Assembly: GCA_002245135.1 (NCBI GenBank)
Contig: NGBS01001172.1
Location: forward strand, 1-64,000
Length of the DNA stretch: 64,000 nucleotides
Direction of reading: 5' to 3'
From: Proteromonas lacertae
Taxonomy: Eukaryota
The position numbers were made by a program, and so were the translations under genes. Shown here one piece after another: positions 787 through 54,969 of this stretch. Each line of letters opens with the position of its first letter. Position 1 is the stretch's first letter. The notes under the pieces are model-generated. The model did no database searches. It saw only the letters and a list, made by a program, of their open reading frames with translations, and was not told where the DNA came from.

Positions 787-2082
787 TTAATTACACAATT
801 GTATTATCACCTTTTCTGATTCGAGGTCTTTCCAAATATGTCTGAAATTTGTTTCAGGATCCCTTCTAGCTACTAATTGAAGTTCATAGTGCTTAAACCT
901 ATATCGAGACACATCTTCATCCCAATTTCCATTTGTATCTCCTAACATATAAGAGTATCTGTTCTTCTTTATAATACGATATATCTTATCTGACCAATAA
1001 GTGTTTTTATCCATAGGTCTTCTTCTCTCTTTAAATCGAACTAAATCTCCTACTTGAAAATGAACTTTTAATCTTTGTTCATTATTAAAATTGTATTTGA
1101 TTGATTCCATTAACATTCTGTTTTGTAGTTTAGGACTATTGTATACTTCATTAGGTGTAAAATCTCTCAAACTTGATAATGGTTTGTTGTTATAGTCATT
1201 CACAGCTTGTTGTACAATATCATTGAAACGTGCTAACCACTTTTGATCGATGATTTCTCTTCTGTCCGTCGATCAATATTAGCTTGAAACTCTGGTGCTT
1301 CTATTCCTAAGTCTATCAAGTGTTTATATAATAGTTTCTTTATTACACTTACCAGATTTATCTAATATAGCTTCTATTCTATGTTCATTAGGTGCTTTTT
1401 GATAGAATGTTATTCCTTCCTTATCACAGAACTCTTTAACTACACTAAAACCACTTTCTAAATCAGCTAAAATACTTACAACACGTCTTTTTGATACTAT
1501 TTCAGAACCATCTTCATTTGTTTTAAAATACCATGCATTAAAAGCTCTCATTATATCTTCAGCTTTATTGCTTGACATTGGTATCACCCATACTTTTCTA
1601 GAGTTTATTTCTATTATATATAAATGATATAATTGAGGTAAGAAAAAGACAATATCTAATTGAAAATAGCCTGGTTTCTTAACAGTTGCAAAAGGTAAAT
1701 CTTTATTGTACTTGAAATCAACTACTTGACGACCTGGTTTACGTCTAAGATACTCTCTAACAACATCATAAGGAGGTGGAACTTCATTCTTTCCAATAGC
1801 TTCTTGAGTTAATTTAATAAACTGTTTTTCACTTAAATAATAATACTGTTCATAAAGTCTATCTAAATATTCTCTATACTGCTCGATTTGTCTTGACATT
1901 TCATCATCATCATACGGATCCGCTCTTGTAAAATTCTGTAATGGCGGTGGTGCATTGTTAAAATTGCTCGTAAGGTTTGATTGGTTTGTTTGATTAACAA
2001 ACTTATATCCTGGTGGTAGTTCTTGAGTTGCATTTGCATCTGACTTAGTGTAAGGCTGATTATAATAAGAATTAGTAAGCAT
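787..2082 (-). pseudogene. Retroviral-like (rve) integrase of Maverick type, split by two frameshifts
   Basis: Core motifs GYFQLDIVF, IEINSRKVW, ILADLESGF and EHRIEAILDK. After a shift at ~1352 it reads VSVIKKLLYKH, and after a second shift at ~1265 it reads KWLARFNDIVQQAVNDYNNK...TPNEV...FQVGDLVR (integrase C-terminal and SH3-like region in ORF 787-1203). Confidence 0.8.
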
Positions 2083-2141: not shown

Positions 2142-5100
2142 CTAATTAATGCTATTTTCATCAATATTAATAACATTATTATTATTATTATTATTATCTA
2201 CAATATCTGTAAACATTGGTGGTGGTGGACGACTTATAGTATAAGGAATTGAAGTTAAAACATTCAAGTAAAATCTCTTTATATCAAAGATTGTAAAAGC
2301 TAACTTTGGTTGTTTAACTGTGTATACTACTTGTTTTGCACTTCTGAAACTATATTGATTAACATAAACTTTACTTAGTTCTTTACTTTCTAAGATATTC
2401 TTGTAGTAATCATAGTCACAAGTCTTTATTCTGAAACCTTTAGTTACGCCTTTTGCTCTGCTATCAGACACCTTTAAGTGCGTAAATCCATCCACTCTTT
2501 GCTTCTCATAAGCATACATCTTTGCTTTCAATCCACAGAATTTTGTTATTGTATATAATTGATCACTTTTGTTCTCTTCCATTTTAAGTAAATTCAGTTC
2601 ACCTGTTCTTTGATAGTTCTGATAACGAATGCCTCTCTCTTTAAGATAATCACAATTAATATTACCAGTATCCATGCAACCTTGTAGACTTAAATCATTA
2701 GCAATATCTTTGTATATATCATCTGTCCATACCATAAAGATAAAAGAGTCTGTATCTGTCATTAATAAACGCAATCCTTGTTTATACTTTTGATATAATT
2801 GTCCATACCAAAACTTTGCCATAAGATACTTTGATTGACAAAGAATGGACATTCCAATATAGCTTGGCTTATCTATTGCACACTTGTATTTTTTAAACTT
2901 ACACACTCTCAAGTCACAACCATCAATTGAAACAAAACCAGTAAAGTATGGATTGCTAACACATTTGAGGAATTGGTCCTCATTATTAACTAGTCTGCTT
3001 CTACATCTATTCTCAGTATTCTCACATGTCTTACCATATGTACTATTCAGGATTAGTTTAAACATATCAGCTTCTGCATCTCGATGAAACTTCTTTGCAT
3101 CTTTTCTTAATAGATGACATTGCATAACAAATTCATACGCATAATCTGTTTCACAAAAACTAATTACTCTCCATACTTTGGTTACTTTATATCCTAACTT
3201 CACAGCATAGTTTAGATATTGATAATGAACAACATAATGATACTTGTTGGATAAATCACATATTATTCTTGCTGTATTATTCTTCAATACTTCTTTGCCA
3301 GACTTTTTGTTGACAGATACTAATCCTAATTCTCTGGCCCATTGCTTCTGTGTTGGTGACAAATCTTCATATAATATTATCTTTCTTTCAGGAAATAAAG
3401 GATACTCTGAAAACTTGCCATTTGTATTATCTGGAGGTTCTATATCAACTTCTAAAATATAACCTCTGCTCTCTGGATCCTTCCACAGCTTCTGATCTTC
3501 TACCATAAATGATCTTTTTAAATCCTCATAAGGTTTTAATTTTGTTATAACATTATCATAAATTAATTGAGGATTTGGTTCCCATTGAAAGTCTTTATAG
3601 GGTAATTTCATTGATGCCATTGTAGAAGGATATAGAGAATTATAATCTACATACATAATATATGTTTCTTGTTTTGGTGGATGAGAAGTATGATCTGAAA
3701 AGTATGGAGGATCCATGTAATGATTTTTAGCTTCTGCTTTTCTCGTAGATCCAATCATTGAAATTCCACCAATAAGACCTTTTCTCATAAAGTCATACTT
3801 GTCTTGATCTGATATTAGTTCAATATCCACTTTGGATTTTTTAAGGAATATACTCCAGGCTAAACCAGGACATGATACATGCCAGCATGGATCTAATGTA
3901 AACGTTCTAAATACAACATTCCTAAAGTGATCGAATACACTAGATAATGTAAGAACATCAATTGCTAAATAAAACATATTGTAATCCATCAAGTTTTTAC
4001 ATTTCAATAGAGTCCAGAGAGCTTGAGATGATTCATAATCATAATCAGAAATACCTTCATTCTGTTTTAATTGAGACTTAAAATCTTCTTTTCTAGGTAA
4101 TTTATCAGTAAGGTATAACTTTTGAATACTATCTACGTATTCGTAGGGGAAATGACCTTTCTGTAAACCCCACTTAGCTATAAAATCATCTACTGTCCAG
4201 TTTCTCTCTTTTAAACAATCATTTATCTCTTTTGTTTGTGTTACATATTGATAAACTGGTTTAAAGAGTACTTTATGATTAGCATGTGCATCAGCTTCGA
4301 CTTTCAATGACTTTACTAATGAATCTAATGATGCTGGCATAAATTGACAACTATCTATAAAGTGTAACTTCATGAACTTGATAAGTAAAAACTTATTATC
4401 AGTTTTTAACAATACAGATAGTTTTGAATGATATTTCTTCTTTCTTGGTGTTGGTTGTTGTTGTTGTTCAGTTGTTGTTGAATTAAGTTGCGAAACAATA
4501 ATATTTCCCATCTCTTCTTCTAATCCAATATCTTCTGCTGTTCTTGGTGATATGTAATGATCTCTACTATGTAACATATAATACAACTCATTAAATGCTT
4601 CTTCATTTGCTGGATCATTTTCATCAACTATTTCAATTGCATTTGGTGGTATTTCTGGTAATGGCAAATCAGAATCAGTATCTTCTTCTGTTTCTGCATC
4701 TTCTTCATCATTATCAACTGTTTTTGCTACTTGTTCTTGTTTCTTTTCTTCTTCAATACCTCTATTGTATTCAGCTAATCTATCAGCAATTGGTTCAGGT
4801 TCAGGCTCAGGTTCAGGTATTGGTAATTGTATAATTTCATTATCTTCTTCTTCATCATCATCATCATCATTTGGAATAGGAATATTATTATCATTGTACC
4901 ATTTTGCTTCCATTTCTTTATCCAACTTTGATAATCCACGTATTATAAAGTTATTGTCATAGTTTTTACTGTTGTGTGCCAAACATGGTATAGGCATATG
5001 TTGTAAACTACAATGCCAATTACAGTTTGAATATAAGGTTGCAATATACTTACCAGTAAAATGGTCATGGTGCCTTGTACGCCTTCTATTTCTGTCGTTT

Positions 5101-7087
5101 TCATTGAAGGGTGTATTGCACCACATACATTTATCGATATTTTTATGAGCTGGAATATAAGTGCTTTCATCTAATGGTTTCAATTCACCACTTTTATAAT
5201 CTTCATACTTCTTCAATACATAATCTTGAATCTCAACAAACTTCTTTACTAGTTGCATCTCCAAATCTTGTGGATCTTGCTGCAATTCCAGTTTTCCGAA
5301 GAATGTTTCTTCGCTGATGATTTCAGGGTACCTGGAACTTAAGTGAATGCACCAACTGCTGAGGATATGTTTTTTAAACGCTCCTTTGGCTCCAGGTATT
5401 ACTTCAGAAGGATCTATTGGTACTTGTATAACTTCTGTATCCCAGTATAATACTACAGGAATCATTTGTTGGTATTTGAAATTATGAAACTTGATGAAAG
5501 TATCTGGAGGTGGAAATTGACGAATAATTCCTTTTTGTAATTGACAATTCTCTTTCTGATGTTGAATTATCATATCAGCTGTTGATAAAGTACAGAAACA
5601 ATACTGGCATCTGGTATAATAATTATGATACCTTTTACCAGAAGGTGATAGGAAGGCTTCTAACTTTGTTATTACCATATAATGATCTTTGTATATTAAC
5701 AAGTTCACATGAGGCCAGTGTTTTCTTTTATCTATGTTGGTAACGTATAAAGGTATTGGTTCATTCTGGTCTATTGTAAATATATTGATAGTAATATGAT
5801 TCAGCTGTTCAAACTCATCAATTCTGTTGCTATCATTAATTGCATCTACTGGAAACCTTAAACTACTTACATCCATTAAATCTACATACTGTTTGTATTT
5901 CATTGCTCTGTTACGGTGGTCTTTGAACTCTACATAGTGTAAACCGGCTGCCACGCTAAATAAAAAGCACATATTCTTACATTCTTCACTATATCTTACT
6001 AAATTAATAACGCACTTTCTATTGTTGAGGCTTGCTGGTAACTTTATGTTGTCATCTTCTGTAGATGATCCAGCAGCCATTGAACTTTTCATCAGTATCA
6101 TCTCTACTTTCTTAATATATCTGAACTTTAGTTCAGATCTTTCAGTGTTGAAAATTGAACCTAAATCTCGAATCATGGCATTGTTTAACTTTGAACCAAT
6201 TGTACCTAACTCTTGAGAAGTTATGATTTCTGGCGCTGTTTCGAATGTTTTGTAACAACTTACTTGTGCATTGGCTGGTTCATCGGATCCTATATAACCT
6301 ACTCTGAATCTGAAATAAACTTTTATATAAGAAAATTTCTTCTCATTTATGTAGTTACGTATGGTAACCATAAAATCACTTGATGCATTGCAGATTTGGG
6401 TAAACAAATCCTCAGGTTTCTTTCCATCTTCTTCATTTATAATCTTCTCGTAGGTACGTTCGTAGTCTCTACTACTTCTCTCTACAAGTTGTAACAAACT
6501 AACTCTTTCAGGATGTGACATTGTTTTCAACTGCCCTGGATGATTATCAACAACATCCAGAGCAATCATTTCTTCCTGTAGCTGCCTTCTTCTTTCAACA
6601 TCTGTAGTTGATTGAGGATGTATTTCAGGAATTGGTCCATCATTAATTGGTGAAAGTGTTGGTGGATCTTCAGGAGGAGGTGTATCTGGCAATAAATCAT
6701 CTGGGATTTCTGATAATCGCTTGTATTTTTGGATGGTGGAGGAGGTGGCTGATCAATTACAATTGAAGATGTTGTTCTTCTTCTTGGTGTTATGAAACTA
6801 GTTTCATTAGTACTTCTAGTAGTGTTTGATTGTTGTTGTTGTTGTTGCTGCTGCTGCTGCTGAGGTTGTTGTAGATGTTGATTTAATGATCCTACATAAT
6901 ATGGTGGAGGATAGTAATAGGATGGTGGTGGGATAGCTGGAGTAAAATAAGGGTTCATCCAGGGATTAAAATAACTTTGTGGCAACATTGGAATCTGATT
7001 TGCTTGACTATTGCCTTGAATAGGCATAGAAGTACTTGGAGACTGGTAATACCACGGATTAAACCAAGGAGGATAGCTGGGATACAT
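2142..7087 (-). CDS. Protein-primed DNA polymerase B (Polinton-type) with OTU-like protease region, Zn finger and endonuclease VII-like insertion; probable frameshift near the N-terminus
   Basis: ExoI YWDTE, ExoII HNSKNYD, PolA YVDYNSLYP, PolB KLILNSTYGK, PolC MTDTDS, KxY KAKMY, and CMWC...HHDHFTGKY. The tracked ORF starts at TTG (6692); adding one base to the T5 run at 6726-6730 fuses it to the P/Q-rich ORF starting at ATG 7087. Confidence 0.9.
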
Positions 7088-7283: not shown

Positions 7284-7698
7284 ATGCGTCATTTTGTTTA
7301 TCAGAGAGATATAACAATGGTTCAAGAAGAAATACCATTTTGGATCAAAGTTTTTAATAGCATTAGAGAATTAGCATTAAATGGATATACAGAAATTCAT
7401 TTCTTATAGTTATTTAGAAGAGAGCATAGCTAATCTAGCAAAGTTAAAAGCTATACTAGACAAAGTCAAGCATTATTATACTAATCAGTATGCAACGAAA
7501 AAAAGATTGGAAATTATCACATATTTAGATAATATTAGAAAAGATGGTAATAGATTTAAGAAAGAATTAATTGAGAATAATCAATTATTTATTGATAACA
7601 AATTAGATTACGCAGTTAATGGATTACTATCTTTATTATGTGATGCTTTAGCAGCTAGAGTGAAAATGGATGCAGATATCAAAAAAAGAAGTAAGTAA
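7284..7698 (+). CDS. Hypothetical helical protein of the outer element, probably frameshifted near 7400
   Basis: ATG 7284 frame (MRHFVYQRD...GYTEIHF) overlaps tracked ORF 7381-7698 in another frame. Confidence 0.35.
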
Positions 7699-7819
7699 TT
7701 ATGAATTTATCTAATTATGATTAAATAATTATATATTTTAAATACTAATACAGAGATTAATTAAAATAAAAAGAAGACTGTGTGTTTTTAAGGGTTTATT
7801 TAAAATAACATAAAAAATC

Positions 7820-7937
7820 CATAACCGATTCTTCTTACCCTTTCTTTTTTTCACTTCCTTACTTAGGGAAAGTGAAGTCGATCACTTTTCTCTAGGTAAA
7901 TAAGTGAAAAAAGAAAGGGAAAGTAAAATCGATTATG
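7820..7937. repeat. Imperfect inverted repeat with ~55-bp arms
   Basis: CATAACCGATT...CCCTTTCTTTTTTTCACTT...AAAGTGA pairs with TCACTTTT...AAGTGAAAAAAGAAAGGG...AATCGATTATG; GGGAAAGTGAAAAC direct repeats follow. Confidence 0.75.
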
Positions 7938-8074
7938 AAATCCGCATTTCAAAAACTAAATGAGTAAAAGAAAAGGGAAAGTGAAAACAAGGGAAAGTGA
8001 AAACGAGTCTTAGGTGGTGTATATGGCCTTCCTAAGCTTTATATCAGTCTCTATAACATAATTGAACAAATGTT

Positions 8075-8264: not shown

Positions 8265-8534
8265 TTAATATATATTATTATAAGTAAATGGAATAGCAGA
8301 AACAATAGCAGTTTTACCTAAAGCTCTATTTATTACAGGTTCTGGTTCATTTAATATTTCAGCGATTTCTGCTGGACAATATCTATGATATAACCATACT
8401 ACAATCTTTTTAACTTTATAAAAAATCCATAATAACATACATACAAAAAATATAAGACCTTCTTGCTTTAGACTTGTTAATGTATCATTCATATCTTTAA
8501 GCATAGTTGAATATTGTGTATTATTAAATGACAT
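8265..8534 (-). CDS. Small single-pass membrane protein (89 aa) of the outer element
   Basis: ATG-started ORF with one hydrophobic stretch (GLIFFVCMLLWIFY) followed by basic residues. Confidence 0.45.
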   Translation of the reverse strand: MSFNNTQYSTMLKDMNDTLTSLKQEGLIFFVCMLLWIFYKVKKIVVWLYHRYCPAEIAEILNEPEPVINRALGKTAIVSAIPFTYNNIY

Positions 8535-8599: not shown

Positions 8600-8994
8600 T
8601 TAATTAATTATACAAGTAGGTGATGTAGTTAGATCTACTGTAGCTACCCCCGCGATAGAACTTGTAGATGTTTCTACTTTAGCAATCTCTACCTTTGGTC
8701 GACCCTCGGCAGTGGAACTATTCTCTACTTTACGCTTCTTATCTTCTCCGCTATTATCACTTCCTTTCTTTACTTCTTCATATCTTCTCTTCTTCTTATT
8801 TCTACACTCAGTACATGATTTATAGAATACACCTTCACTCTTATAACCAAATTCATCATTAGCTTTCTTCTTACCACAAGTACTACATATCTAGCTACTT
8901 CACTTTCAATGATTGCATTGATTCTTTCAAATTCTTCATCTTCACGCTTATTTCTATCTTCTATATTAACATTCTCGATCCAAATTCTTTACAT
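8600..8994 (-). pseudogene. Disrupted C4 zinc-ribbon protein
   Basis: Untracked frame reads ICSTCGKKKANDEFGYKSEGVFYKSCTECRNKKKRR...CIIN*. The upstream part has a stop at codon 2 (ATG TAA) and a frameshift near 8890. Confidence 0.5.
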
Positions 8995-9214
8995 TTGAAT
9001 ATAGTAGTAAATAGTTCAATATTATCAGGATATATAAATATAATAGGTAAAATAAAATATGAGATATATTTTTTTCAATTGCAAAGAAGAACACCGATAT
9101 AGTGTGTTATATTTGAGCATTTGCTTATTGAATGATATTTTAGACTAATAACAACAAAAAATCAACAACTTAAAACAAAAATTATAAGGATAAAAAAAGA
9201 TTCATAAATTAGTT

Positions 9215-9220
9215 TTGGTA
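9215..9220 (+). repeat. Left 6-bp target-site duplication TTGGTA
   Basis: Identical to 17223-17228 and directly abuts the left TIR. Confidence 0.85.
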
Positions 9221-9382
9221 TATATAGTATATAAATGGGACTCTGGCATATTGTGCCATAGTCCCATTTACGTAAGGTTCCTACGGGATTCCTCCTAACG
9301 GGGTCTACTTCTCAACAGAGTCTACTTCCCTGCGGGAACTCCTGGAAGCTATCTAGAAGTGTTGGTTACCTCGGGATGATGA
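9221..9382. repeat. Left TIR (162 bp) containing a hairpin with 17-bp arms at 9232-9270
   Basis: Aligns to the reverse complement of 16827-17222 apart from a 164-bp and a 70-bp gap. Confidence 0.85.
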
Positions 9383-9760
9383 AGCTATGTTTTCTATTAC
9401 CCCCCTTACAAAGACTAGAGAATGAATGTAGGAGGTTGATTATCTTAAGATCATTTACTTTGGCTTCTTGGGGGTGTTGGTTAAGCATTGTCCTCGGTAA
9501 AGTCTTCCTCCGGTGATTCCTCATCCTTCTCAGAGAAGGAGGAGGAATCGTCAGAGGAAGACTCCTTGCTATTGTTAAGTCTACGTCTCTTATCCTTCAA
9601 GTAGCTTCCTAGAGATGCTTTTCTCTTAATTGAATTGCCTACAAGGTACACTTCGTTCTCTTGCTAAGCACCTCACCAAAGACTACATCGGTAAGTAAAG
9701 TACCTGGGTTATGTTTATAAGCTAGTTACCGATACAATGGCAACTCCAAGGAAGTTCTTG

Positions 9761-10162
9761 TTATGGTAAGATGAGTACCTCGTGACACTTGAGATCAACT
9801 TCTTCATCTATCTGTAATCGATCCATTGCATACTCCAACTCCAGGTCATTGAGTCGATGCCTTAAGTCTCTTATCATTGCATCTTGTCCAAGACAACTCT
9901 CCATGTTAATCTTCTTGCAAGTGTCCAAGAGGTTGTAAGCCTTTCCGAAGCTACTACTGATGATCTCGTCTTTACAATAACGAGAGATTGCTTCATCGTA
10001 GAGTATACGTGCTTCTCCACTGACCAGGGAATGATAGATCTGCTCGGCCCTGTTCATCCACATCTCTAACACTAGCCTTTCATTCTCTGATGGTAACTTC
10101 GGGTAGTTGTTATCACTTGGGCAATCTACGGTCTGGAGTAAGCTGTTACCGATGGCTTCCAT
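9761..10162 (-). CDS. Orphan protein of the inner element (133 aa); may extend to a stop at 9481
   Basis: ATG-started ORF with the element's codon style; a downstream frame reads ...KDKRRRLNNSKESSSDDSSSFSEKDEESPEEDFTEDNA*. Confidence 0.55.
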   Translation of the reverse strand: MEAIGNSLLQTVDCPSDNNYPKLPSENERLVLEMWMNRAEQIYHSLVSGEARILYDEAISRYCKDEIISSSFGKAYNLLDTCKKINMESCLGQDAMIRDLRHRLNDLELEYAMDRLQIDEEVDLKCHEVLILP

Positions 10163-10314
10163 TGATAAGTAATTGCGAGTGATTGTAAGTAGCTCTTAGA
10201 ATGATAAGGAAAAGACCAACTAGCTATCTCCGATGATTCTTACTCCAGTGACTTTACAAGTACCCTAAACACACGTTGATAGTAAAAGCTATGAGCTTAT
10301 GCGTGTTACTGATC

Positions 10315-13300
10315 TCACCACAACTCATTGAAATCATCATCATCCTCTTGATCCTTCGGTAGTATTGAGTAGTGCCCATAAGGCAATGTTCTAATGTGAT
10401 CGATAAAGTACCTCTTATCATCAAAGGGAGTGAAGACTCTCTTGGTGGTCTCTACGGTGTAGATGTGTTGATCGAGGACACGGAAGTTCCTAGTCTTACA
10501 ATTCATATCCTCCATGGGTAGCATGTTGAAGAGAGTCTTGAAGTAGACGTCAAAGTTCTTCTGTTCTCTTAAGGCTTTATTGAGTCCCTTTGCACGGCTA
10601 TCACATTCCACGTAGACGGAAGAAGCTTCACTCTTCTCGTAAGCATACATCTTTGGTTTAATCCCGACGAACTGAGTGATTGTATAAAGCTTACCATTCT
10701 TGTTCTCTTCACATTTCAATAAGTTCAATTTGCCAGTGTCCTTGTAATTGTCATAGACGATTCCTCTATCCCTTAAGATGTCAACGTTGAGATTGCCAGT
10801 GTCCATCATCCTCATGAACTGCTTATGCTTCATAATATCTCGATAGATGTCTTCAGTCTTACACTTATAAAGCAAGGAGTCGGTATCAGTCATAAGCAAC
10901 TTCAAGGAGGATCCATACAAGGGATAGAGAACATCATACCAGAACCTTTGCATCTTCAACTTCGATAAGCATAAGATTGATGTACCGAGGAAGATGGGCA
11001 TGTCAATGAAGCAGGCGGACTTATTGAAATAACATAATCGGAGATCTGGATCTTCTTCATCTAAGTTCTTGAAGGTATCGAACCAGTTGCTGCTAGCGTA
11101 CTTTTTAAAGGTCTTCTCGGAGCAGGCTATCTTGATGCTGGATCGTCGTTCCTTACGCTCACAGCTCTTACCATAGATGGAGATCAACAATAGCTTATAA
11201 GTATCACTATCGGCAGTACGATTGCTCTTCTTTGCATCTACTCGGTATCGGATCATATCATCCACAAAGGTCTTCATCAGAGGTTCTTCAGTGAACTCCA
11301 ACACACGATGGACACCTTGTATCTTATAACCTTGTTCAGCTGCATACTTAAGTGCCTGGTAATGGATTACGTAATTCTTCTTAGGGGTGAGATCGCAGAT
11401 CAACTTCTCGGTCTTTACCTTCATGTTCATCTTACCATCCTCTGTTGTTAGCACCAATCCATACTCTTGAGCTAATGCCTGCTGAGTCGGTGATAGCTGA
11501 TCGTAAGCGATTGTCTTTCGTTCTGGGAACAAAGGATACTCCTTGAACTTATCATGAAGCTCTCTCGGACACTCGATATCGACTTCGAGGAAGTATCCTT
11601 TACCTGGCTCCTTGAACTCCTTCATAGACATGTCATCGTAATAAGGCTTCGAGAGGATCTCTTGAATGACTTCATCGGTCGTGGCAATGAACTTGAAATC
11701 TCCACATGGTAACTTGCTGGAGGACATCGTGGATGGGTATAAGCTATTGTAGTCATTGTACATGATATAAGTAGAAGGCTCCGATGGATCGTAGTTGTTC
11801 TGATACTTGTTGTTACTAGTGCTATACTTTTCACTTCCCATAGATGAGATACCTCCGTAAAGGCCAGCTATGAAGAAGTCGTAGATGTCTTCCTCGGAGA
11901 TCAAGGGGATGCTGATGTGCTCATGCTGGAGGAATGCATCCCATGATAAACTAGAACCAGAGATGTACCAGGCTGGATCTAACTGGAACCCTCCGAGGAT
12001 AACATTACGGAAGTTCTCAAAGACACTTGCTAGGATGCCAACATCGACGGCTAAGTAAAGCATGTTGTAATCACCTAAGGACTGACACTTGAACTTCTTA
12101 AACACTTCACAGGCAAAGTTGTACTCCTCCTCATTGATTCCTTTCATATTGAGCTCTGAGTAGAAAGCTTCTTGTGGTAACTCTGGGTCATCGTACTTGG
12201 CTAAGTCATCACAATACTCATAAGGGAAGTAGTTCTTCTGCATGAGGTAAGTCTTGATCATCTCTTCATCATATCCCTTGATCTGGTTCATCACGTAGAA
12301 CACCGGGGCAAAGTACTTCTTGAAGTCCCCGGACTGGACTGCTTGACGATGTAAGCACTCTGTAAGAGACTGTAAGCTAGAGGACATGAAGCAGTAGCTA
12401 TCAATGAAGGACAATCGTAAGGTTGATATGCTAAGGAACTTCTCATCGGACTTTGGTATCACGTCTACTTGGCATCTCTTAGCTAACTCTCGTAGGATGA
12501 ACGCCTGATCGTAGTTCTTAGCATTGTGGGCTATCACCGGGATTCTCATATAAGCAATCTGGCAAGCGGTGTTACAGGAATTGCATAAGGCTGCGATGTA
12601 CTTACCGGTGAAGTGATCATGATGTCTTACCTTATAGTTCTCCTTGGTAAACAACTCACCGCAGAAGGCACAGTTAGTTGCTTCATTAAAAGCTACCTGA
12701 TCATCCTTAGTTACTCTCATCACCTTTGGCTTATCACTGATCTCTCGATAATAGTCCTCAATCAACTCTCCGATCAATAGGAACTGACTCACTAGCTCTT
12801 CTTCTAAGTTCTGATCGGGACTTGTCTTCTTGCCTTCAATGCACCTTGAAGGGAAGTCATCGACTCTACTCCACACAAGGATATGGTAACTATATAATAC
12901 GTGAAGGGACTTCTTGGACTCCTCAGTCTTGCTTTCGTTTAAGGCATTACCATCTGCATCAACGTGGGATACCTTCTTGAAATAGACCTCTGTATCGTAG
13001 TAGATGACAATGGGGATGTATTGCATGTTCTTATAGTGCTTAAAGAAGCAATGGCTCTTCTCATAATCGTTTGAGTCAGGGAACTCTCTCTTGATACGGT
13101 ACTTGATAAGCTTCTGGCAGGGATAACTTTGATGAGTAAGGAACTGCCGGAAGGAAGTTGTTCCCGAGCAACAGTAAGGGCAACAAAAGTAAGTGTTGTG
13201 GTTCTTCTTACCGGTGTCTTTGGAGTACGATCTCTTCATAAGGGCGCTGAGACTCTTGACTAACCAGAAGTGACCTTCATGATAGAATAGATTCACATGG

Positions 13301-14208
13301 GGGTAGTTTAAGTGCTTATCGATCTTCGGTAAGTAGATTGGAGCTACGCAATGGATATGGTTCTTCTCCTTCTTTGACTCCTCATTGATGATCTTAAGAC
13401 CGAAGATGGAGATGGTAAGGTGGTTCTTCTCCTGGAACTGTTGAATCTTGTTATGATGGAAGTCTAAGTCCATTGGGTAGGTTAACATGCTATCATCGAC
13501 CATGGATAGGAAGGGTTCATATTGCTTCGGACGATTAGGATTAGTACCACAGGAAGGTTTTAAGAACATCACGATGCAGTAAAGGAAGCATCGATCGTCA
13601 GTGTTCTTTACTGTACAACAACACTTCTTATTAGCAATAAACTCAGGCAACTTCGGGATCCTACAACATCTATCAAAGACTGCTAGCTTTACTTTGACCC
13701 CATCTATCGTCTTGAAGATCATCCCTGACTTCTCTTGAGCTAAGTCCTTATTGAGCTTATCATGAATCGCTGCTTGGAATAGATCCTGGATGCTCTTCCT
13801 ATCGATGAAGTTGTTGATTGGGAATGTATCGCACTTGACAGTATAGATCTTGTTGGTGCCTGCGGTCTCTTCGAAGGTACAAATCAACGTGATGCTTACT
13901 TTGAGGTTCACATGAGCAGTCAGTATCTGCTCCAATCTTTCGTAGAATGGTTCATTGCCATAGCATAGTTGATTGACGAAGGCTTCTGGATTATCTCTTA
14001 AGGTCATCTGAGGAGTCTCCATCTGGATTACCCTAGAGTACTCCATGGAAGATAACTCCTTCTCATGCATGTTGAAAACTCTCTGATCCATAGGTAATGC
14101 TCTTGGATCATTAACCATCGGTGGAACTACTGCGCGATCTCTTCTCGGGCTCCTTGAAGTCCTTTGCTTCTTTGCTGGAGTATTATCGCTAGGTAATGAT
14201 CTCTTCAT
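10315..14208 (-). CDS. Protein-primed DNA polymerase B (1297 aa) with OTU-like protease region, Zn finger and endonuclease VII-like domain
   Basis: DDRCFLY...GHFWLV, CPYC...H...C, ExoI YYDTE, CAFC...HHDHFTGKYIAALCNSCN, ExoII HNAKNYD, PolA NDYNSLYP, PolB KLLLISIYGK, PolC MTDTDS, KPKMY. Confidence 0.95.
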   Translation of the reverse strand: MKRSLPSDNTPAKKQRTSRSPRRDRAVVPPMVNDPRALPMDQRVFNMHEKELSSMEYSRVIQMETPQMTLRDNPEAFVNQLCYGNEPFYERLEQILTAHVNLKVSITLICTFEETAGTNKIYTVKCDTFPINNFIDRKSIQDLFQAAIHDKLNKDLAQEKSGMIFKTIDGVKVKLAVFDRCCRIPKLPEFIANKKCCCTVKNTDDRCFLYCIVMFLKPSCGTNPNRPKQYEPFLSMVDDSMLTYPMDLDFHHNKIQQFQEKNHLTISIFGLKIINEESKKEKNHIHCVAPIYLPKIDKHLNYPHVNLFYHEGHFWLVKSLSALMKRSYSKDTGKKNHNTYFCCPYCCSGTTSFRQFLTHQSYPCQKLIKYRIKREFPDSNDYEKSHCFFKHYKNMQYIPIVIYYDTEVYFKKVSHVDADGNALNESKTEESKKSLHVLYSYHILVWSRVDDFPSRCIEGKKTSPDQNLEEELVSQFLLIGELIEDYYREISDKPKVMRVTKDDQVAFNEATNCAFCGELFTKENYKVRHHDHFTGKYIAALCNSCNTACQIAYMRIPVIAHNAKNYDQAFILRELAKRCQVDVIPKSDEKFLSISTLRLSFIDSYCFMSSSLQSLTECLHRQAVQSGDFKKYFAPVFYVMNQIKGYDEEMIKTYLMQKNYFPYEYCDDLAKYDDPELPQEAFYSELNMKGINEEEYNFACEVFKKFKCQSLGDYNMLYLAVDVGILASVFENFRNVILGGFQLDPAWYISGSSLSWDAFLQHEHISIPLISEEDIYDFFIAGLYGGISSMGSEKYSTSNNKYQNNYDPSEPSTYIMYNDYNSLYPSTMSSSKLPCGDFKFIATTDEVIQEILSKPYYDDMSMKEFKEPGKGYFLEVDIECPRELHDKFKEYPLFPERKTIAYDQLSPTQQALAQEYGLVLTTEDGKMNMKVKTEKLICDLTPKKNYVIHYQALKYAAEQGYKIQGVHRVLEFTEEPLMKTFVDDMIRYRVDAKKSNRTADSDTYKLLLISIYGKSCERKERRSSIKIACSEKTFKKYASSNWFDTFKNLDEEDPDLRLCYFNKSACFIDMPIFLGTSILCLSKLKMQRFWYDVLYPLYGSSLKLLMTDTDSLLYKCKTEDIYRDIMKHKQFMRMMDTGNLNVDILRDRGIVYDNYKDTGKLNLLKCEENKNGKLYTITQFVGIKPKMYAYEKSEASSVYVECDSRAKGLNKALREQKNFDVYFKTLFNMLPMEDMNCKTRNFRVLDQHIYTVETTKRVFTPFDDKRYFIDHIRTLPYGHYSILPKDQEDDDDFNELW

Positions 14209-14415
14209 ACTTCCTGAGAAGTACTTGGAAATTAAAAACTGATAGCTACCAGGTGTTTCACTTCACGTAGAATCCGATCATAGACTTCTCCGATGATTCC
14301 AATCATGAACTTTTCCGAGGTCTTCTAACTTCACTTCTTCTTCTTCTTCTTCGTTTGCTCCTTTATGTTATCTTGATCACAGCCAGCACAACAGTTGCTT
14401 ATTATGACTTAGCGT

Positions 14416-15255
14416 TTAATGATTAAGTTCTGGTCTCTTTGAGCTAGGCGATTCTACATCCTCGGAGGAGCTTCTGCTTCTCTTGGTGACTATGTCCTCA
14501 TCTTCCTTGGGTGTTGATGTTAGCTTACAGGTGACTTGCCCTTGTAATTCCTCCGACCTCACGGGGTTATTAACTACTGATAATGCTTCTGAGATTAAAG
14601 TCTCCAGCTTCATGTCCTTTGAGGTCTCTTCCTTGGTGCTGTTGAACTCTTCCAGTTGTTCTTGCTCCTTCATTTCACTAACAATCTTGCTAGCATCCTT
14701 CATCAACTCATCAGAGTCTTCCTCCATGAAGTGGTTCTCTTTTTTGTTGTGGTTCTCCCAGTGATAGTAATCATACATCTCAGCATAGTCCTCGACCTTG
14801 ATCTTGAACTCCAGGAGATTGCTTAAGTACTTTGCAGTGAAATACTTTAAGTTGATCATCCCATCGTAGAATCTCTTATACTTCTCCGAGCATCGATAGT
14901 TGGGCTCTTGGATCGCCTTCAATGTTGATCGGAGCTTCAACACGTTCCTTATAATGCTCTTCACTTGAGTTAAGCACCATGATGGAGTATGCCTAGCTTC
15001 GATGCACTCTTCAACAACCTTTACCTCCTTGAGCTCTTCGATGAACTGAGATATTGTCAGCTCCTTGAGATCCTCCAAAAGAAGTAGTTCCGGTACTTCT
15101 TCTATCAGTTCGGGACTGTTTCGGTATTGAGTTATCAGCTCCTTGATCTTCGCTTGACATTTCTTAAAGGCCTTACGGGATCGTGTGTATAAGCCATAGA
15201 TATTAAACCTGCTAAGGTACTGCTCTAGCATCGGTCTCTTGATTGTCCTGTTCAT
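14416..15255 (-). CDS. Orphan protein of the inner element (279 aa), helical with acidic tail and NLS-like C-terminus
   Basis: Intact ATG-started ORF ending ...KRSRSSSEDVESPSSKRPELNH. Confidence 0.7.
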   Translation of the reverse strand: MNRTIKRPMLEQYLSRFNIYGLYTRSRKAFKKCQAKIKELITQYRNSPELIEEVPELLLLEDLKELTISQFIEELKEVKVVEECIEARHTPSWCLTQVKSIIRNVLKLRSTLKAIQEPNYRCSEKYKRFYDGMINLKYFTAKYLSNLLEFKIKVEDYAEMYDYYHWENHNKKENHFMEEDSDELMKDASKIVSEMKEQEQLEEFNSTKEETSKDMKLETLISEALSVVNNPVRSEELQGQVTCKLTSTPKEDEDIVTKRSRSSSEDVESPSSKRPELNH

Positions 15256-15312
15256 GAAGTTAGGAACATCATAGGGAGTAAGCTGGATGAATCTTCCCTT
15301 GATTGATCTTGC

Positions 15313-16038
15313 TTAGAAAGCATCTCGCATATTACCATCCTTATCGAATAAACCAATGTCAACCAAGTACAGGTAGTTCTCTTCATCATACTTATCGCTT
15401 ACCGAGGGTCTGTGAACTTTATAAAACACCTGGCCACGTTCACTCCGTTCAAAGAAGTAATCCAGGCATGACAACTGTTCTATCGGGTAAGGAGCTCTAT
15501 AATCCTTCGGGTTGAACCTACTTGAGTCTGGTTTATATCGGGAATATGCATCCTTTAAGATTTTAAGATGGCAATAACTCCAGTCGATGAAACTATCGTA
15601 GATCATTATCGTCCATCTCCTTGCAACTTTAATTGCCTTGTAGTTGGGGTTATTGATAAAGTGTCTTGATTGCCATAAAGGAATGATTGAAGAGTAGCTT
15701 ATCGGAGGTATCCATCCACAGTCCTTCAGATCTGGATCATCGATAGAAGTCTTGCTCCATGTTATCAACTCACGATAGCTAGCAGTGAACTCCAGATACT
15801 TGCTTAGATCCAGTGCAAGAGTCTCTAAGGTGTTGATTTCATCGGCTGGTTGTTTAGACTCCTTGAACTTCCCCAAGGTGTAATCAACTACGTCCTTATA
15901 GTCCTTTACTGCATCTCGTACTCCTTCAAAGAGCTCCATCTTCTTATCCCAGTAGCTATTGAACATCTCCTGAGTAAGGTTACTCTTGTCATCTCCATGA
16001 TGCTCAGCCACGACTCTAAAGGGATTGTAAGGTTGCAT
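15313..16038 (-). CDS. Orphan protein of the inner element (241 aa)
   Basis: Intact ATG-started ORF, aromatic-rich, no motif I recognise. Confidence 0.7.
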   Translation of the reverse strand: MQPYNPFRVVAEHHGDDKSNLTQEMFNSYWDKKMELFEGVRDAVKDYKDVVDYTLGKFKESKQPADEINTLETLALDLSKYLEFTASYRELITWSKTSIDDPDLKDCGWIPPISYSSIIPLWQSRHFINNPNYKAIKVARRWTIMIYDSFIDWSYCHLKILKDAYSRYKPDSSRFNPKDYRAPYPIEQLSCLDYFFERSERGQVFYKVHRPSVSDKYDEENYLYLVDIGLFDKDGNMRDAF

Positions 16039-16247
16039 AATTATTATTGCTGTATGCTTAGATCGATAGGAATTGCTGGAATATTGAACTCATCGGAGAT
16101 TGTTAAGAAGGTCTTTACAATTGTTAACTCTAGAGATTCCCTTTTGAGTTTCCACGATTACCTGAAGTAGCTTACCTTGAAGGCTTAGAATGGTATTGAA
16201 ATTTACTCAGTCAACAATCTGTGGAAGTTCCATGGCTTTGTCAGGAG

Positions 16248-16279
16248 GTTCCTCCTTGAGTTACAACTCAAGGAGGAAC
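16248..16279. repeat. Perfect 15-bp inverted repeat
   Basis: GTTCCTCCTTGAGTT-AC-AACTCAAGGAGGAAC. Confidence 0.85.
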
Positions 16280-16454
16280 ATTCCCTTCCTTGTTAGGATA
16301 GATGATAATTGAATGTTACCTAGTTGATTAACAAGGACGATTAGACCTACCTCTAGGAAGCTCCCGAGAATGCTTACGATGATCTTCAAGGCCTTGAGAA
16401 AATCCAGTACTAACCAGAACCTCCAGTTGTAAAGTCACTGATTAATAGAAGAAC

Positions 16455-16569
16455 CATCAAGACCTTCCCAGATACGTCCAGCCGTGCATGACTGCGTCAG
16501 GGAATCTCCCATCGTGGGAGATTCCCTTCCTTGCCAACACGGCTGTTCTTCTCGGGAAGGTCTTGGATG
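16455..16569. repeat. Interrupted long palindrome
   Basis: Nested arms CAAGACCTTCCC/GGGAAGGTCTTG, CAGCCGTG/CACGGCTG and core AGGGAATCTCCCA-TCG-TGGGAGATTCCCT. Confidence 0.8.
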
Positions 16570-16826
16570 AACTTATCTAGGAGAGTTATAAGGATGATAA
16601 AACATACCTTCAGAAGCCTTCCGAGATTGCTAATCATTATCTTCAAGGGCCTTGAGAAATCCACAACTTGCTAGAACCTCCCGGAGTTACCATTTGGTAA
16701 CTTGTTAACAATTGTTAACTTGTTACCAATTGTTAACTCCCGGTTCCACGATTGGTTTCCACGGTTCAATTAAAAGCCCTTACAAGGTCACCAGCGTAGC
16801 AAGGAGAGTCAAGAGCGTGATTAGAA

Positions 16827-17222
16827 TCATCACCTCGAGGTAACCAACACTTCTAGATAGCTTCCAGGAGTACCCGTAGGAGATCGTCTCATAGATAGGT
16901 ATAGGTAGGTATAGGTAGGTATAGAAATAGCTTAGAGGAGTCCCCGTAGGGAAGTAGACCCCGTTGAGAAGTAGACCCTGTTGGGAGGAATCCCGTAGGA
17001 ACCTTACGTAAATGGGACTATGGTACAATATGCCAGAGTCCTAACGAGTTTTCTAGGGGTCCGTCCCCTTCTAGATTCAGAGTTGACCTTTACGGGAGCT
17101 TCATCGATGCAATCGATGAAGCTCCCGTAAAAGTCAACTCTGAATCTAGAAAGGGACGGACCCCTAGAAAACTCGTTAGGACTCTGGCATAATGTGCCAG
17201 AGTCCCATTTATATACTATATA
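16827..17222. repeat. Right TIR (396 bp)
   Basis: Inverted copy of 9221-9382 plus a 70-bp segment with TAGG/TATAGG micro-repeats and a 164-bp palindromic segment. Confidence 0.85.
17009..17211. repeat. 203-bp subterminal palindrome (100-bp arms, GCA loop, 5 mismatches)
   Basis: 17009-17108 is the reverse complement of 17112-17211, checked base by base. Confidence 0.95.
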
Positions 17223-17228
17223 TTGGTA
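17223..17228 (+). repeat. Right 6-bp target-site duplication TTGGTA
   Basis: Identical to 9215-9220. Confidence 0.85.
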
Positions 17229-17467: not shown

Positions 17468-20400
17468 TTATTTCGATATTTTTTTAATAACATAGTTTCT
17501 TAAATCTTCATATTCAACTTTTATTATTCTTTTTTTTAGAACTGCTTTATCATATAATTGCTTTTTTTCATCATCAGTTAAATCGTTCTTTGTTAATTTT
17601 TGAAAAATATCTGGATATATTTTTGTTACTCTAGGTACTTTTTCAAGATCAACATTTTCTTTTGGACTTATTATAAGGTAACCAAAATCTAAATTTAAAT
17701 CAACTATAGTATAATCTTTACCTTTATCATATCCATGTTCATAAATCAAGTACAAATTCTGTAGAATCATTGTCATTTCAGGTGCATATGAATGTTCTTT
17801 ACTAACAGTAATTTGAATACCAAACGGTCCAATTAATGCATCAATATCAGGGAAATTTTTATCATAACTGAAGTCAATAAAATGATATTTATTTTCATCA
17901 TGATATTCTTTGAAAAGTAAAATTTCATTTTTTAACTGTTCATGATTATTTACAGGCTTTGCAATAACTGTATTATCAGAATAGAAACTACTATTTAATC
18001 TCTCAATTTCATTAACTATATCTGCTCTAAAATCATCAGATTTTTTCATTAAAAATAATATTATTATCTCATATAAATTTCCAACAAAAGCTCCAATTCG
18101 ATTTTCATATAATAAATTTATCATTTCGTTACATTCTACGAATGAACTAATATTTAACAGTTTATTACATGCAATGCTTCTTACTGTATCAGATATAAAT
18201 CGAAGATTACCAGATTCAGTAACATCATTTTCATCTGTTTCATATATAAGTATATTTTGATAAACTTCCTTTGATATAGATGATATATTTATGCCTTTTA
18301 TCATATTCTCAATCATCACTTTGTTCACTTTATTTATTTCACGCGTACATTTATTTTGATCATCTTTATATTTTCCAATTATACCACCATAATATTCATA
18401 GTTATTGAGATATTCATCCAATTTCATTTTTAATCTTTTATCTATTTCAACATTTGATATTTTTTCTATTTCATCATATTTAATAATTTTTCTATTAGAT
18501 TTGATTAGTGCTGGATGTTTCAATTTTACTACTTTTTCTACTTCTTCTATTGTAAATGGGGGTATATACATCACCAAAGGGCATCTTTTGTTTTGAAAAG
18601 TCTTAAAATTTTTATCACAAGGATTAGCTAACACTATTATCATTTGTGCATCTGCAAAATCATCTTCTCCTATAGCAACTCCATCAGAAACAACAATATA
18701 TGGATAATATGGATAATCTTTTTCATTCTTATAATAATTAGACTCACTATTATTGCATTTTCCATTTATATATTTGTAATGTATTCGAATATCTTTATTC
18801 TTTTCATGAATTTGGTTTATAATAATTTCCGCTAATTCAGATTTACCTATTCTTTCTTGGCCAAATATCAGAATATTTTTTTGATTTTTATCATTCATTG
18901 GATAAATAAAATCTATTATATTACCAAAACATTTTCTCATTAATAACAATTTTTTACCATTGTCATATACATCAAATGTTTCTTCTATTGTTGTTCTTTG
19001 TTGCTCTTGTACTTCTGTTGTTAATGCTGCTGTAGCTGTTGCTATCGGTGGTATTGCTGGTGCTATTGGTAGTGGTGCTGTAGCTGTTGCAAGTTTAATC
19101 TTAAAGTTTGTATCATATTCATATACTCTGTATTGTTTTATTACACAATATGTAAATTCACCACTTTCAATCTCACTGTATTCCTATTTTATTATAAATA
19201 TTATACAGATTCATACTTTTATAGATTTTTCTATTCTATTTCTATCTCTATCAAACAGGTCATCATCTAATAAGACTTTTATAAATATTCCATCCATTAT
19301 CAAATCAAAGTAATTATTTTCATCCAATATGTAATAAACAAAATGTAATGCATTTGGAGGATAATGAACATAGACTGGGTTTTCATAGTTTAATTTGAAA
19401 TTTAGATTACTGTTAATTGGAATGCTTATAGTATCTGTATACGTCAACTTCATCATTTCGGTGCTTAATTGATATGCTATAATCTGTTTTAATGCCATTT
19501 TTTTTACATATATATCATCATCATCAATTGAATTATACTTATCTTTTAAACGTTCATAATCATTAATATCTGTTGGTGGATAGAATTTAAAAACAATGTA
19601 ATTTTCAACATCATCAGAAATGAATTTTAAATGATCTTTTGGTTTTAATATATAATGATCTAATTCATCATTCCATTCTGATATAAAATCATATTTTAAT
19701 ATAATATTGGATAAGTCATTATTCTTCAAGTTGTTTCTATACATATAATTATCTACAAAGTTATTATAACCAGTTGTTCCTACTACACTGTCTATCAACT
19801 GCTTATAATATTTCCAGTAATTTCTACAGCTACCAAAGTTTTCTTTGTATAAATAGTGATAATAAATCTGTCGCGGTATATTACCATATTTTCTACATAT
19901 TCCTTCAAATTCCTTTAAACTAGTATAATTACTATTAATGCACTCTTTAAACCATTCAATTATTTCTGTATCATTTAATGAATTAAAATATAATTCTATA
20001 CATTTTTCATCATCATCAGTATAATAATCATTGTTTTGCTCATCAGGTGAACTGATGGATATAATTATGTTACCAGAACCAAATTTAGCATTAAAAGTGT
20101 CAACTATTATTATCGAATCATTAATATCACGTTCTTCTATATCATCAATTTCTATGAGATGACAATTTGTAAATAAATATTTCTTCCTATCACCAGAAGC
20201 GTCATTCTTCTTCCCTTTTACTACGTAAATATCTTTAACAGTTTTATTCTCTCTTCTCCATACTTTATCATCTAAAATATAATAATTGAATCCAAACTTT
20301 CTCATTTCATCATAATCTAGCGGTAATGAACTTTTTGTTTCTGTATCTTCTTCAATTTTTCTCATTTTTTCTGAAATTTTTGTACATGAACTATTCATTT

Positions 20401-21858
20401 CCTTTTTTAATCCATCATATTTGCTTATCACTTCTTTTTTTTATTTTTACACTTTTTTGTTTTATTTTCATTGTTTTGTATTATAAAATTAAGACTATTT
20501 ATCTTATTAATTCTATTTACAATAGTTGATGATGCTACATATCCATTAATAACTCTTTCCTTTGTAGGAATAGTTTTCTTAAAATCTTTCAACTTTTTTT
20601 CATCAATTACTGCATCTACATTGGCTATATCATTATTAGTTTCTTTTATTATATTCATTATCTTATCTATTTTATCTAAACAATCTTTCATCATGGCTTC
20701 TGATGAAGTATATTCAAATTCTTCACCAAGTAGTGTGTATATACATTTTTTACCATCTCTTTTATAATAATTTTTGGAAATTTTATTATTATCAATAACG
20801 TTTTTTAGATTTCTATAATAATCTTTAATATCTTCTTTATATTTATTAATCTTTTCTTTGTTCTCTTTTATATTTCTTTCAAGTATTGTTATTTCCTGAT
20901 TCAGTGAATTTTCTTTTTTGTTTTTTTTAACATCTAATCTTTTCTTCAATTCTTCAATATTTTTTCTTTCAATATTTAACTCTTCTAAATGTAAAGATTT
21001 CTTTTTATCTTCAAATGCATTTGATAGATTTTTCTTTAAAAAGAATAGTAAAACATAAATAAACGATGTTTTACCTATACCTGGCTGACCAGTTACTACT
21101 ATATATTCATATTTCGACATGCATTTACAAATATCACGAAATATTGTATAATAACAATCCCTGATGTAAATTGTCTTCTTTGGGAATTGAAATACATTGA
21201 TATCATCGCTAAATTGTAGATACATCTTTGTTTGATCTTTAATAGCTTTACTATTCTTCTTAAGTTTATTATGATATACATCTGTTAAACTATTCACGAT
21301 TCTTATAAAACTATCTTCTTCATTGGATTTTTTACTTTCTAGTTCTTTTCGTATATCATCATCCAAGAATTCAATACCATCATGTCTATCAAACAAAATG
21401 AATACAGGATAGATTGGATTTTCACATTGTATATCACTCAATTTACATAGAACATCATCATCTTTCTTACCATCTTCTTTAATTGACATGTTTTTTTCTT
21501 CCAAATTGTATGTTATTTCATATATTGTACCTTCTTTCAATCCATCAATTGTAACTTCAAGTATTCCACCTTTATCATCCATCTGTGGTGTTACATCAGC
21601 TGATGTGTTCTTTATTTTCATCAACTTTATCATTTTATCACTACTTATCCTTGATAATGATTGAGAATATCCAACTCCTAATTTAGTTTTTACTTTCCAA
21701 ATTTGGATTCTCATCATACACTTTTTAGCTTTAACTTGTTTTTCAAGTATACCGATTTTTAATTCTTCGGATCTATTTCTAAACAGTACATCATTTATTG
21801 CTAAGGTTGAATGGCCATTTTTTCTTCTTTCTGGCAAACAGTCTAGAATAGAATTCAT
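17468..21858 (-). CDS. Crinkler/RHS-type protein with two P-loop NTPase modules and a C-terminal REase-like domain
   Basis: IYIRDCY...VVTGQPGIGKTSF, a second module LLMRKCF...IFGQERIGKS, and C-terminal FPDIDALIGPFGIQITVSKEH. Three tracked ORFs join through a T8-run frameshift (20435-20442) and a ~33-nt intron near 19184-19216. Confidence 0.7.
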
Positions 21859-54699: not shown

Positions 54700-54969
54700 A
54701 TAATAGATATAATATATTTTTCATAAGTAATGCATATCATATATTACATTTGTCCATATTTGTTTGTTGTGGTTTATATTTTTATGAAATGTTTTTTTTA
54801 TCAAATTTATTATTTCTTTATTATTTTAATATATTTATTTTTTTTATTAAATATTAATCTAATAATAATTTGGTGATTAATAGGAGTATTAAATAAAAAA
54901 AACAAATTAAAAGCTGATAAATTTCCTATATTTATTAAGTAAATTCATGAATAAAATTCTATATAAAAA

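Follow-up and report, generated by a model that had tools for sequence, protein, structure and literature searches.

A candidate replication-only Polinton derivative beside a decayed relative in the genome of Proteromonas lacertae

The locus

The first 64,000 nucleotides of contig NGBS01001172.1 of the eukaryote Proteromonas lacertae (assembly GCA_002245135.1, forward strand; hereafter the window) contain a discrete element of about 8 kb that encodes a polymerase of the Polinton (Maverick) type, pPolB, together with three orphan proteins. Its features, including its target-site duplication (TSD), terminal inverted repeats (TIRs) and open reading frames (ORFs), were as follows.

9215..9220, left copy of the TSD, TTGGTA, a letter match to the right copy
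9221-17222, the 8-kb element, 8,002 bp, with discrete ends between the TTGGTA copies
9221..9387, plus strand, left TIR with a (TA)3 tip, perfect for 28 bp and imperfect to about 9387
9232-9270, left-end hairpin of 39 nt inside the left TIR
9484-9663, minus strand, frame of 60 codons without ATG, coding-like in codon use, overlapping a 63-nt hairpin at 9501-9563
9761..10162, minus strand, ORF133, an orphan at the integrase place of many relatives that is no integrase
10315..14208, minus strand, pPolB, 1,297 aa, assigned by Pfam and motif alignment
14416..15255, minus strand, ORF279, an orphan predicted to form a four-helix bundle with a disordered tail
15313..16038, minus strand, ORF241, an orphan whose residues 23-98 are predicted to form a long helical hairpin, with low confidence for the remainder
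16039..16820, upstream stretch without coding sequence, holding a direct repeat of 109 nt (71%) and, at 16680-16743 and 16248-16279, short palindromes
16822..17222, minus strand, right TIR, exceeding the left by insertions of 164 nt and about 70 nt
17009..17211, right-end hairpin of 203 nt, near-perfect, with 100-nt arms and five stem mismatches, 11 nt inside the tip
17223..17228, right copy of the TSD, TTGGTA, a letter match to the left copy

An earlier reading of this DNA (the original prediction) had placed the ends at 9221 and 17222, with a perfect 28-bp inverted match and a duplicated TTGGTA, and the letters bore this out. Two other registers were also compatible with the letters: 9220-17223, giving a TSD of 4 bp (TGGT), and 9226-17217, giving AG...CT ends and the TSD ATATAT. 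We preferred 9221-17222, which explained the most duplicated bases and provided the (TA)3 end motif. At the composition of the flanks, the same 6-mer would be expected on both sides by chance with a probability of 8e-4; the terminal 21-mer, with up to three mismatches allowed, was found in the window only at the two element tips (0.01 expected). The guanine plus cytosine (GC) content was 42.6%, against 27.5% in the 2-kb left flank and 25.1% in the 2-kb right flank, confirming the predicted step in composition, but the left flank proved to be a second pPolB element and not plain host DNA. The predicted gene content (pPolB plus three orphans) held for ORFs of at least 100 aa beginning with ATG. 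All four lie on the minus strand, in the order 241, 279, 1,297 and 133 aa, closely spaced and with no stop in about 1,950 codons.

The polymerase

The pPolB of the 8-kb element matched DNA_pol_B_2 (PF03175) at residues 557-1020 (Pfam, E 1.8e-21). Alignment located the three exonuclease motifs, the palm motifs and, at the place expected for a vOTU domain, OTU-like Cys and His motifs near residues 204-211 and 312-317, a putative catalytic pair. A terminal-protein (TP) domain can tentatively be placed by its position in the published plan of such polymerases, TP-vOTU-EXO-PALM (Krupovic et al., 10.1101/2024.03.18.585575). At residues 504-548 an insert scored slightly below the curated Pfam cut-off for Endonuclease_7 and carried Asp/His/Asn-like motif residues; this PF02945 nuclease insert was common among pPolB homologs, integrase-bearing relatives included. 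A PDB sequence search with pPolB gave no useful match.

Homologs of pPolB numbered 2,279. The best were three Logan proteins, 41-42% identical, after which identity dropped to 31-36%. For comparison we fetched 107 Polinton-like loci (27 viral and the best 80 of at least 270 from metagenomes), in which all pPolBs were 25-33% identical to that of the element and none belonged to its close clade. A FastTree tree was computed from 75 sequences (two from the window, 22 of 120 listed homologs and 52 locus ORFs, with one duplicate dropped) over 958 columns and rooted at the midpoint. In it the element pPolB nested among Polinton-like pPolBs and formed one clade with the pPolB of the neighbouring element and three relatives, P0001-P0003 (support 1.0, stem 0.76). 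No close relatives were found by a single-protein scan of viral contigs or with a close-clade alignment.

Search for integrase and virion genes

From 806 ORFs of the 107 loci we built five profiles, using 36 sequences for the integrase, 38 for the ATPase, 21 for the protease, and 20 and 28 for the putative major capsid and the putative penton. When the seeds were checked by Pfam, integrase and ATPase were confirmed and the protease weakly so; the capsid seeds were not, and their labels are our own reading. None of the profiles matched the element in six frames. The best independent E-values were 9.2 for the integrase (with no Pfam rve match either), 2.7 and 5.2 for ATPase and protease, and 18 and 0.9 for the putative major capsid and penton. 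As a positive control, the same integrase profile found the broken integrase of the neighbouring element (1.3e-15 and 2.9e-18). The profile and family searches recognised no gene for a packaging ATPase or a protease, nor, in line with the original prediction, any integrase or capsid-like gene. In protist MELD elements, virion genes may escape sequence recognition (Starrett et al., PMC8502044, section 3.4). The small size of the three orphans, each below the 415-600 aa of the putative major capsid seeds, and the helicity predicted for the two that were folded (ORF279 and ORF241) argue against a capsid among them.

Among the fetched relatives that have inverted repeats at both ends, the shortest (L018 and L026) measured about 12.3 kb. 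Eleven large loci that lacked the five marker genes were considered as analogues and rejected: ten have pPolB in pieces, and the eleventh, L054, is gene-rich and at least 19 kb. In L054:1438-19239 an intact pPolB of 1,472 aa is accompanied by numerous ORFs, and the five marker profiles matched none of them.

Terminal repeats and hairpins

The 28-bp match, perfect as predicted, is not the full extent of the TIR, which continues imperfectly and with indels for about 160 nt in total (identity 92% across 115 nt, then 93% across another 54 nt). The (TA)3 tip parallels the simple-repeat tips of vertebrate Mavericks, described as (AG)3 and (AGT)2 (PMC8097293). The 203-nt hairpin folded at -114 kcal/mol as DNA (z -25.9, matched by 0 of 200 shuffles), and no comparable hairpin occurred elsewhere in the window. 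One of the 107 fetched loci contained a hairpin of at least 35 pairs, a weak comparison given that most of these loci lack their ends. An imperfect 634-nt palindrome (82%) occupies the edge of another fetched locus with a fragmented pPolB (L100:1-634).

An 11-nt repeat, GGACTCTGGCA, was present in two copies 164 nt apart at the right end and in one copy at the left. Removing the 164 nt between the GGACTCTGGCA copies from the right end reproduced the left end with one mismatch in the first 75 nt. This arrangement leads us to regard the long hairpin as ancestral and the left end as derived from it by deletion, 164 nt having been lost between the 11-nt direct repeats; an expansion at the right end may instead have produced the asymmetry. 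An assembly fold-back is unlikely, because the arms differ at five positions and the left end is an exact short form. [quoted passage not shown]

At 268-277 ten bases agree with the terminus; the agreement was taken as chance, another being present at 38135. In viral contigs, all 25 exact matches to the terminal 18-mer were likewise chance: only 2-7 of the next 20 bases agreed, and none of the contigs encodes a pPolB. These results bear on one alternative origin, in which the element replicates by itself as a satellite or as one segment of a multipartite genome, while another molecule with matching ends gives capsid and integrase and packages it. The size and few genes recall transpovirons and the segments of bidnaviruses, which have common termini (PMC8502044); the elaborate end structure could serve as a packaging signal; and the high GC content at third codon positions (GC3) relative to the host suggests recent arrival from outside. 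Yet the window held no second sequence with the element terminus, the matches in viral contigs did not extend, the OTU-like Cys and His motifs are kept, unlike in bidnavirids, and the neighbouring element differs strongly in codon use. We regard such an origin as improbable, and its multipartite form, raised in the original prediction, gained no positive support.

The insertion itself appears recent. In a neutral-drift simulation the absence of stops, the identical tips and two changes in pPolB fit best at about 0.5-1.5% drift. The uninterrupted codons and identical tips suggest that the insertion is young, and the 8% divergence of the inner TIR arms, too high for drift of that order, is likely older than the insertion.

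Orphan genes

ORF133, ORF279 and ORF241 each had coding-like codon use in their own frame and no other, under a codon model trained on pPolB. An antisense ORF of 90 aa lies within ORF279. The three orphans matched no Pfam or PHROG family and had no tblastn match in the 107 fetched loci. No homolog of ORF241 was found among 1.84 billion representatives, and none of ORF279 or ORF133 in a search limited to proteins of 0.55-1.75 times the query length. Single-sequence modelling gave a four-helix bundle for ORF279 (mean pLDDT, the predicted score of the local distance difference test, 60) and a helical hairpin for ORF241 (mean pLDDT 47), the C-terminal 140 residues of which had no confident model. 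Foldseek at E 0.001 returned nothing for ORF279 against the PDB or for ORF241 against viral models. Structure alignment of the ORF279 model (VIA-align) recovered generic four-helix bundles, with a designed protein at the top (Z 14.0, rmsd 3.6, 165 aligned), and the likeness of this predicted fold reveals no function. In the ESM Atlas, ORF133 resembled CCDC65/DRC2 coiled coils (0.91; recognition 1894, below 2300), a weak lead only, and ORF241 had no match. The 60-codon frame could be a spliced last exon of ORF133, a deletion scar or a by-product of the hairpin that it overlaps; a splice joining it to ORF133 is possible but not unique, with 19 frame-keeping solutions.

The orphans and the nuclease insert also enter into a second alternative, that of a linear plasmid-like replicon which entered the chromosome without a helper integrase, whether by break repair in the host, by means of the endonuclease VII-like insert or with a recombinase that went unrecognised among the orphans. 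The Endonuclease_7 match with its motif residues would suit such a route, as would the 203-nt palindrome, which could extrude a cruciform. Cruciforms are the substrate type of T4 endonuclease VII. Such a recombinase might lie in the part of ORF241 that has no confident model, or in ORF133. Both tips, however, are intact down to the last base, and an exact duplication of 6 bp, as Polintons usually leave, borders them; the nuclease insert is frequent among integrase-bearing relatives; and the orphans are short and predicted to be mainly helical. We give this route very little credence.

The neighbouring element

The left flank of the 8-kb element contained the following genes.

787..2082, minus strand, rve-type integrase gene, broken, directly downstream of the neighbour pPolB and interrupted near 1200-1330
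2142..6569, minus strand, neighbour pPolB, 1,475 aa, of the same clade as the element pPolB, with a long acidic insertion and a GC3 of 0.24

The neighbour integrase matched Pfam-confirmed rve proteins of two fetched loci (L009 and L082), and no relatives of it turned up in viral contigs. The two pPolBs of the window were 43% identical over the C-terminal 730 columns, and GC3 was host-like in that of the neighbour (0.24) as compared to 0.55 in that of the element. Both differences led us to reject the idea that the 8-kb element is a cut-down copy of its neighbour. The neighbour frames between 6566 and 9070 also looked broken; since host genes nearby keep long intact frames, the breakage reflects decay and not errors spread throughout the sequence. 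The visible 9.2 kb of the neighbour showed no ATPase, protease or capsid-like gene (best independent E-value 0.015, within the pPolB gene); the neighbour may extend past the window edge. A motif rich in purines, clustered at 7848-7995, recurred at 17228 and 17260, a weak hint that the 8-kb element may be located inside the end region of its neighbour.

Several smaller features of the neighbour were recorded. A proline/glutamine-rich ORF (6566-7087) overlaps the start of its pPolB, and small orphan ORFs lie at 7381-7698 and 8265-8534. Its non-coding stretch at 7809-7950 contains an imperfect hairpin of about 120-140 nt with GAAAGTGAAA-like repeats clustered to about 8010, a possible end or origin signal; with Rfam, the hairpin matches in the neighbour all stayed below threshold. 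At 8600-9070, about 150-200 bp from the left end of the 8-kb element, is the frameshifted remnant of a minus-strand gene with two CxxC pairs.

Origin of the element

We consider it about an even chance (roughly 50%) that the 8-kb element is a replication-only Polinton derivative, for whose insertion a related full element provided the rve integrase in trans. The 6-bp footprint is that of a Polinton-type rve integrase and the element has none, so a helper would have supplied it. An rve integrase gene does exist in the same genome and the same pPolB clade, adjoining the element. Insertion in trans, as originally proposed, became more plausible with this relative at hand, even though that particular integrase is broken; because it is broken, the neighbour marks a type of helper and need not be the acting copy. 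It is plausible as such a type, not as the parent.

The steps may be pictured as follows. The pPolB would bring its own terminal protein, cut off by its OTU-like protease, as its motifs and the published domain plan suggest. Synthesis would begin by protein priming at the (TA)3 tips of linear DNA, and the inverted repeats could pair as a panhandle. The rve integrase of a helper would insert the element, leaving a 6-bp duplication with clean ends. The long hairpin may be an end signal, formerly at both ends, of which the left end would have lost 164 nt. It is a more doubtful step to see here a distinct family of minimal self-replicating Polinton satellites, borrowing integration and perhaps packaging from a related Polinton. 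On that view the replicon would be linear and 8 kb long, and would combine a complete terminal-protein polymerase with three helical proteins peculiar to the family and a long hairpin at its end.

Against insertion in trans stand several observations, most of which serve the strongest alternative: that a full Polinton inserted with its own integrase, which it later shed together with the virion module through a single internal deletion or two, leaving a one-off remnant that never moved. The window holds a single copy of the 8-kb element, and the termini of the neighbour were not found in it. Most relatives carry integrase and virion genes: among 48 loci of at least 10 kb, the integrase was found in 23, the ATPase in 31, the protease in 19, the putative major capsid in 19 and the putative penton in 27. 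P0001, of the same clade, lies on a 13.4-kb contig. In many relatives, and in the neighbour, the integrase directly follows pPolB, a place held here by ORF133; on the same side, by the left end, lies the coding-like 60-codon frame without ATG, which could be a scar of deletion. The left end is apparently short of 164 nt, and the neighbour has decayed. Of 40 near-invariant columns, the element pPolB deviates at two: position 752 and, in motif B, position 1009, at which 118 of 122 homologs have one residue in common. By the same count P0002 and P0003 deviated at none of 39, P0001 at one and the decayed neighbour at three. Of vertebrate Mavericks, 96% are reported as degraded (PMC8097293), and TIR-bearing fragments in Halocafeteria were taken as possible remnants (bioRxiv 10.64898/2026.07.28.741278).

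Loss by deletion has its own difficulties. Not one fragment of an integrase, ATPase, protease or putative capsid gene was detected in any frame, and the four ORFs are intact, tightly spaced, on the same strand and free of stops. As the shortest TIR-bounded relatives fetched are about 12.3 kb, at least 4 kb would have to be lost cleanly within a young insertion. We think this history possible but unlikely. The replication-only module of the original prediction carries the caveat of the two near-invariant positions; because of these, the present copy may be impaired or slightly decayed.

Remainder of the window

The surrounding host DNA is AT-rich and eukaryotic, with apparent introns of about 30-46 nt (judged by eye). 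Two related clusters of intron-poor ORFs with weak P-loop NTPase matches, at 17468-21858 and 34789-37600, are duplicated about 16.4 kb apart with 71-83% DNA identity; they tentatively recall Crinkler-like NTPase proteins. An MT-A70 family methyltransferase gene occupies 44645-45520 in host DNA. Two opposed repeat-rich ORFs at 53893-55918 have 33/66/99-nt periodicity and are inverted copies of each other (about 71%). A hAT-type transposase with a BED zinc finger occupies 62216-64000 and runs past the window end.

Comparison with known systems

The nearest systems are Polintons or Mavericks with a pPolB of the alpha type (OTU-bearing, PF03175), among them the MELD elements found in eukaryotes other than animals (Starrett et al. 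2021, PMC8502044). Shared with these are the OTU-like, exonuclease and palm motifs, the HNH/EndoVII insert, TIRs with a simple-repeat end motif and a 6-bp TSD. The element differs in having no detected integrase, ATPase, protease or capsid-like gene, in its tip, which is (TA)3 and not (AG)3 or (AGT)2, and in its length of 8 kb as compared to 13-25 kb (Jeong et al. 2023, PMC10748475). The best homologs of its polymerase are just 41-42% identical. Capsid-less Polintons have been described as pure transposons that have shed their virion genes (Koonin et al. 2015, PMC4405056); they keep pPolB and TIRs, as here, but the present element additionally lacks the integrase.

Elements bounded by TIR and TSD but without core genes, possibly dependent on complete copies, have been described among the virophages and Polinton-like viruses of Halocafeteria seosinensis (bioRxiv 10.64898/2026.07.28.741278). 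These gene-poor elements, as described there, have in common with ours the TIR and TSD, the end palindromes, and clustering or nesting with viral elements; their palindromes (52 nt in one example) favour replicases other than pPolB. Here, in contrast, a full pPolB is accompanied by a one-sided 203-nt hairpin and intact ORFs.

Transpovirons, at about 7 kb, are capsid-less, linear and helper-dependent, like the proposed state of the element. They are described as encoding a fusion of pPolB with an S1H helicase, without exonuclease (10.1101/2024.03.18.585575), whereas the element pPolB has exonuclease motifs and no helicase family match, which places it outside that group. The vOTU protease of bidnavirids is reported as inactive in the same source; the element keeps the Cys and His motifs in alignment, to which a catalytic role is assigned by motif reading, and neither the window nor the viral contigs yielded a companion segment with the same termini and a parvovirus-type capsid or NS1. 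Fungal cytoplasmic linear plasmids of the pGKL type share the TP-vOTU-EXO-PALM polymerase and the lack of capsid and integrase. They differ in being extrachromosomal and in carrying RNA polymerase and transcription genes, families of which Pfam detected none among the four ORFs of this chromosomal, TSD-flanked element; a companion plasmid might supply them.

Among titles and abstract openings of a largely open literature, Repbase excluded, none described an intact pPolB element of 8 kb that lacks integrase as well as capsid. Gene-poor elements with TIR and TSD, and terminal palindromes, have been noted before; an intact pPolB element lacking integrase and capsid would be a new combination. Were the element a one-off deletion product, it would be an ordinary case of decay, notable just for its new pPolB clade and its end hairpin. 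Polintons are regarded as the source of transposons that lack a capsid but keep the integrase, of adenoviruses, in which the integrase is gone, and of extrachromosomal linear plasmids, in which both are gone. If insertion in trans is correct, the loss of both integrase and capsid together with a clean 6-bp insertion would be the remaining combination among Polinton derivatives, and Polinton integrases would be able to mobilise other replicons. Surveys that begin with the capsid or require the full set of core genes, as the designs given in PMC10120064 and PMC10748475 suggest, would overlook such elements, and the small size of this one would make it a handy model for protein-primed Polinton replication. 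If, beyond that, it belongs to the more doubtful family of satellites, it would stand to Polintons as transpovirons stand to giant viruses, a living intermediate between a Polinton and a linear plasmid.

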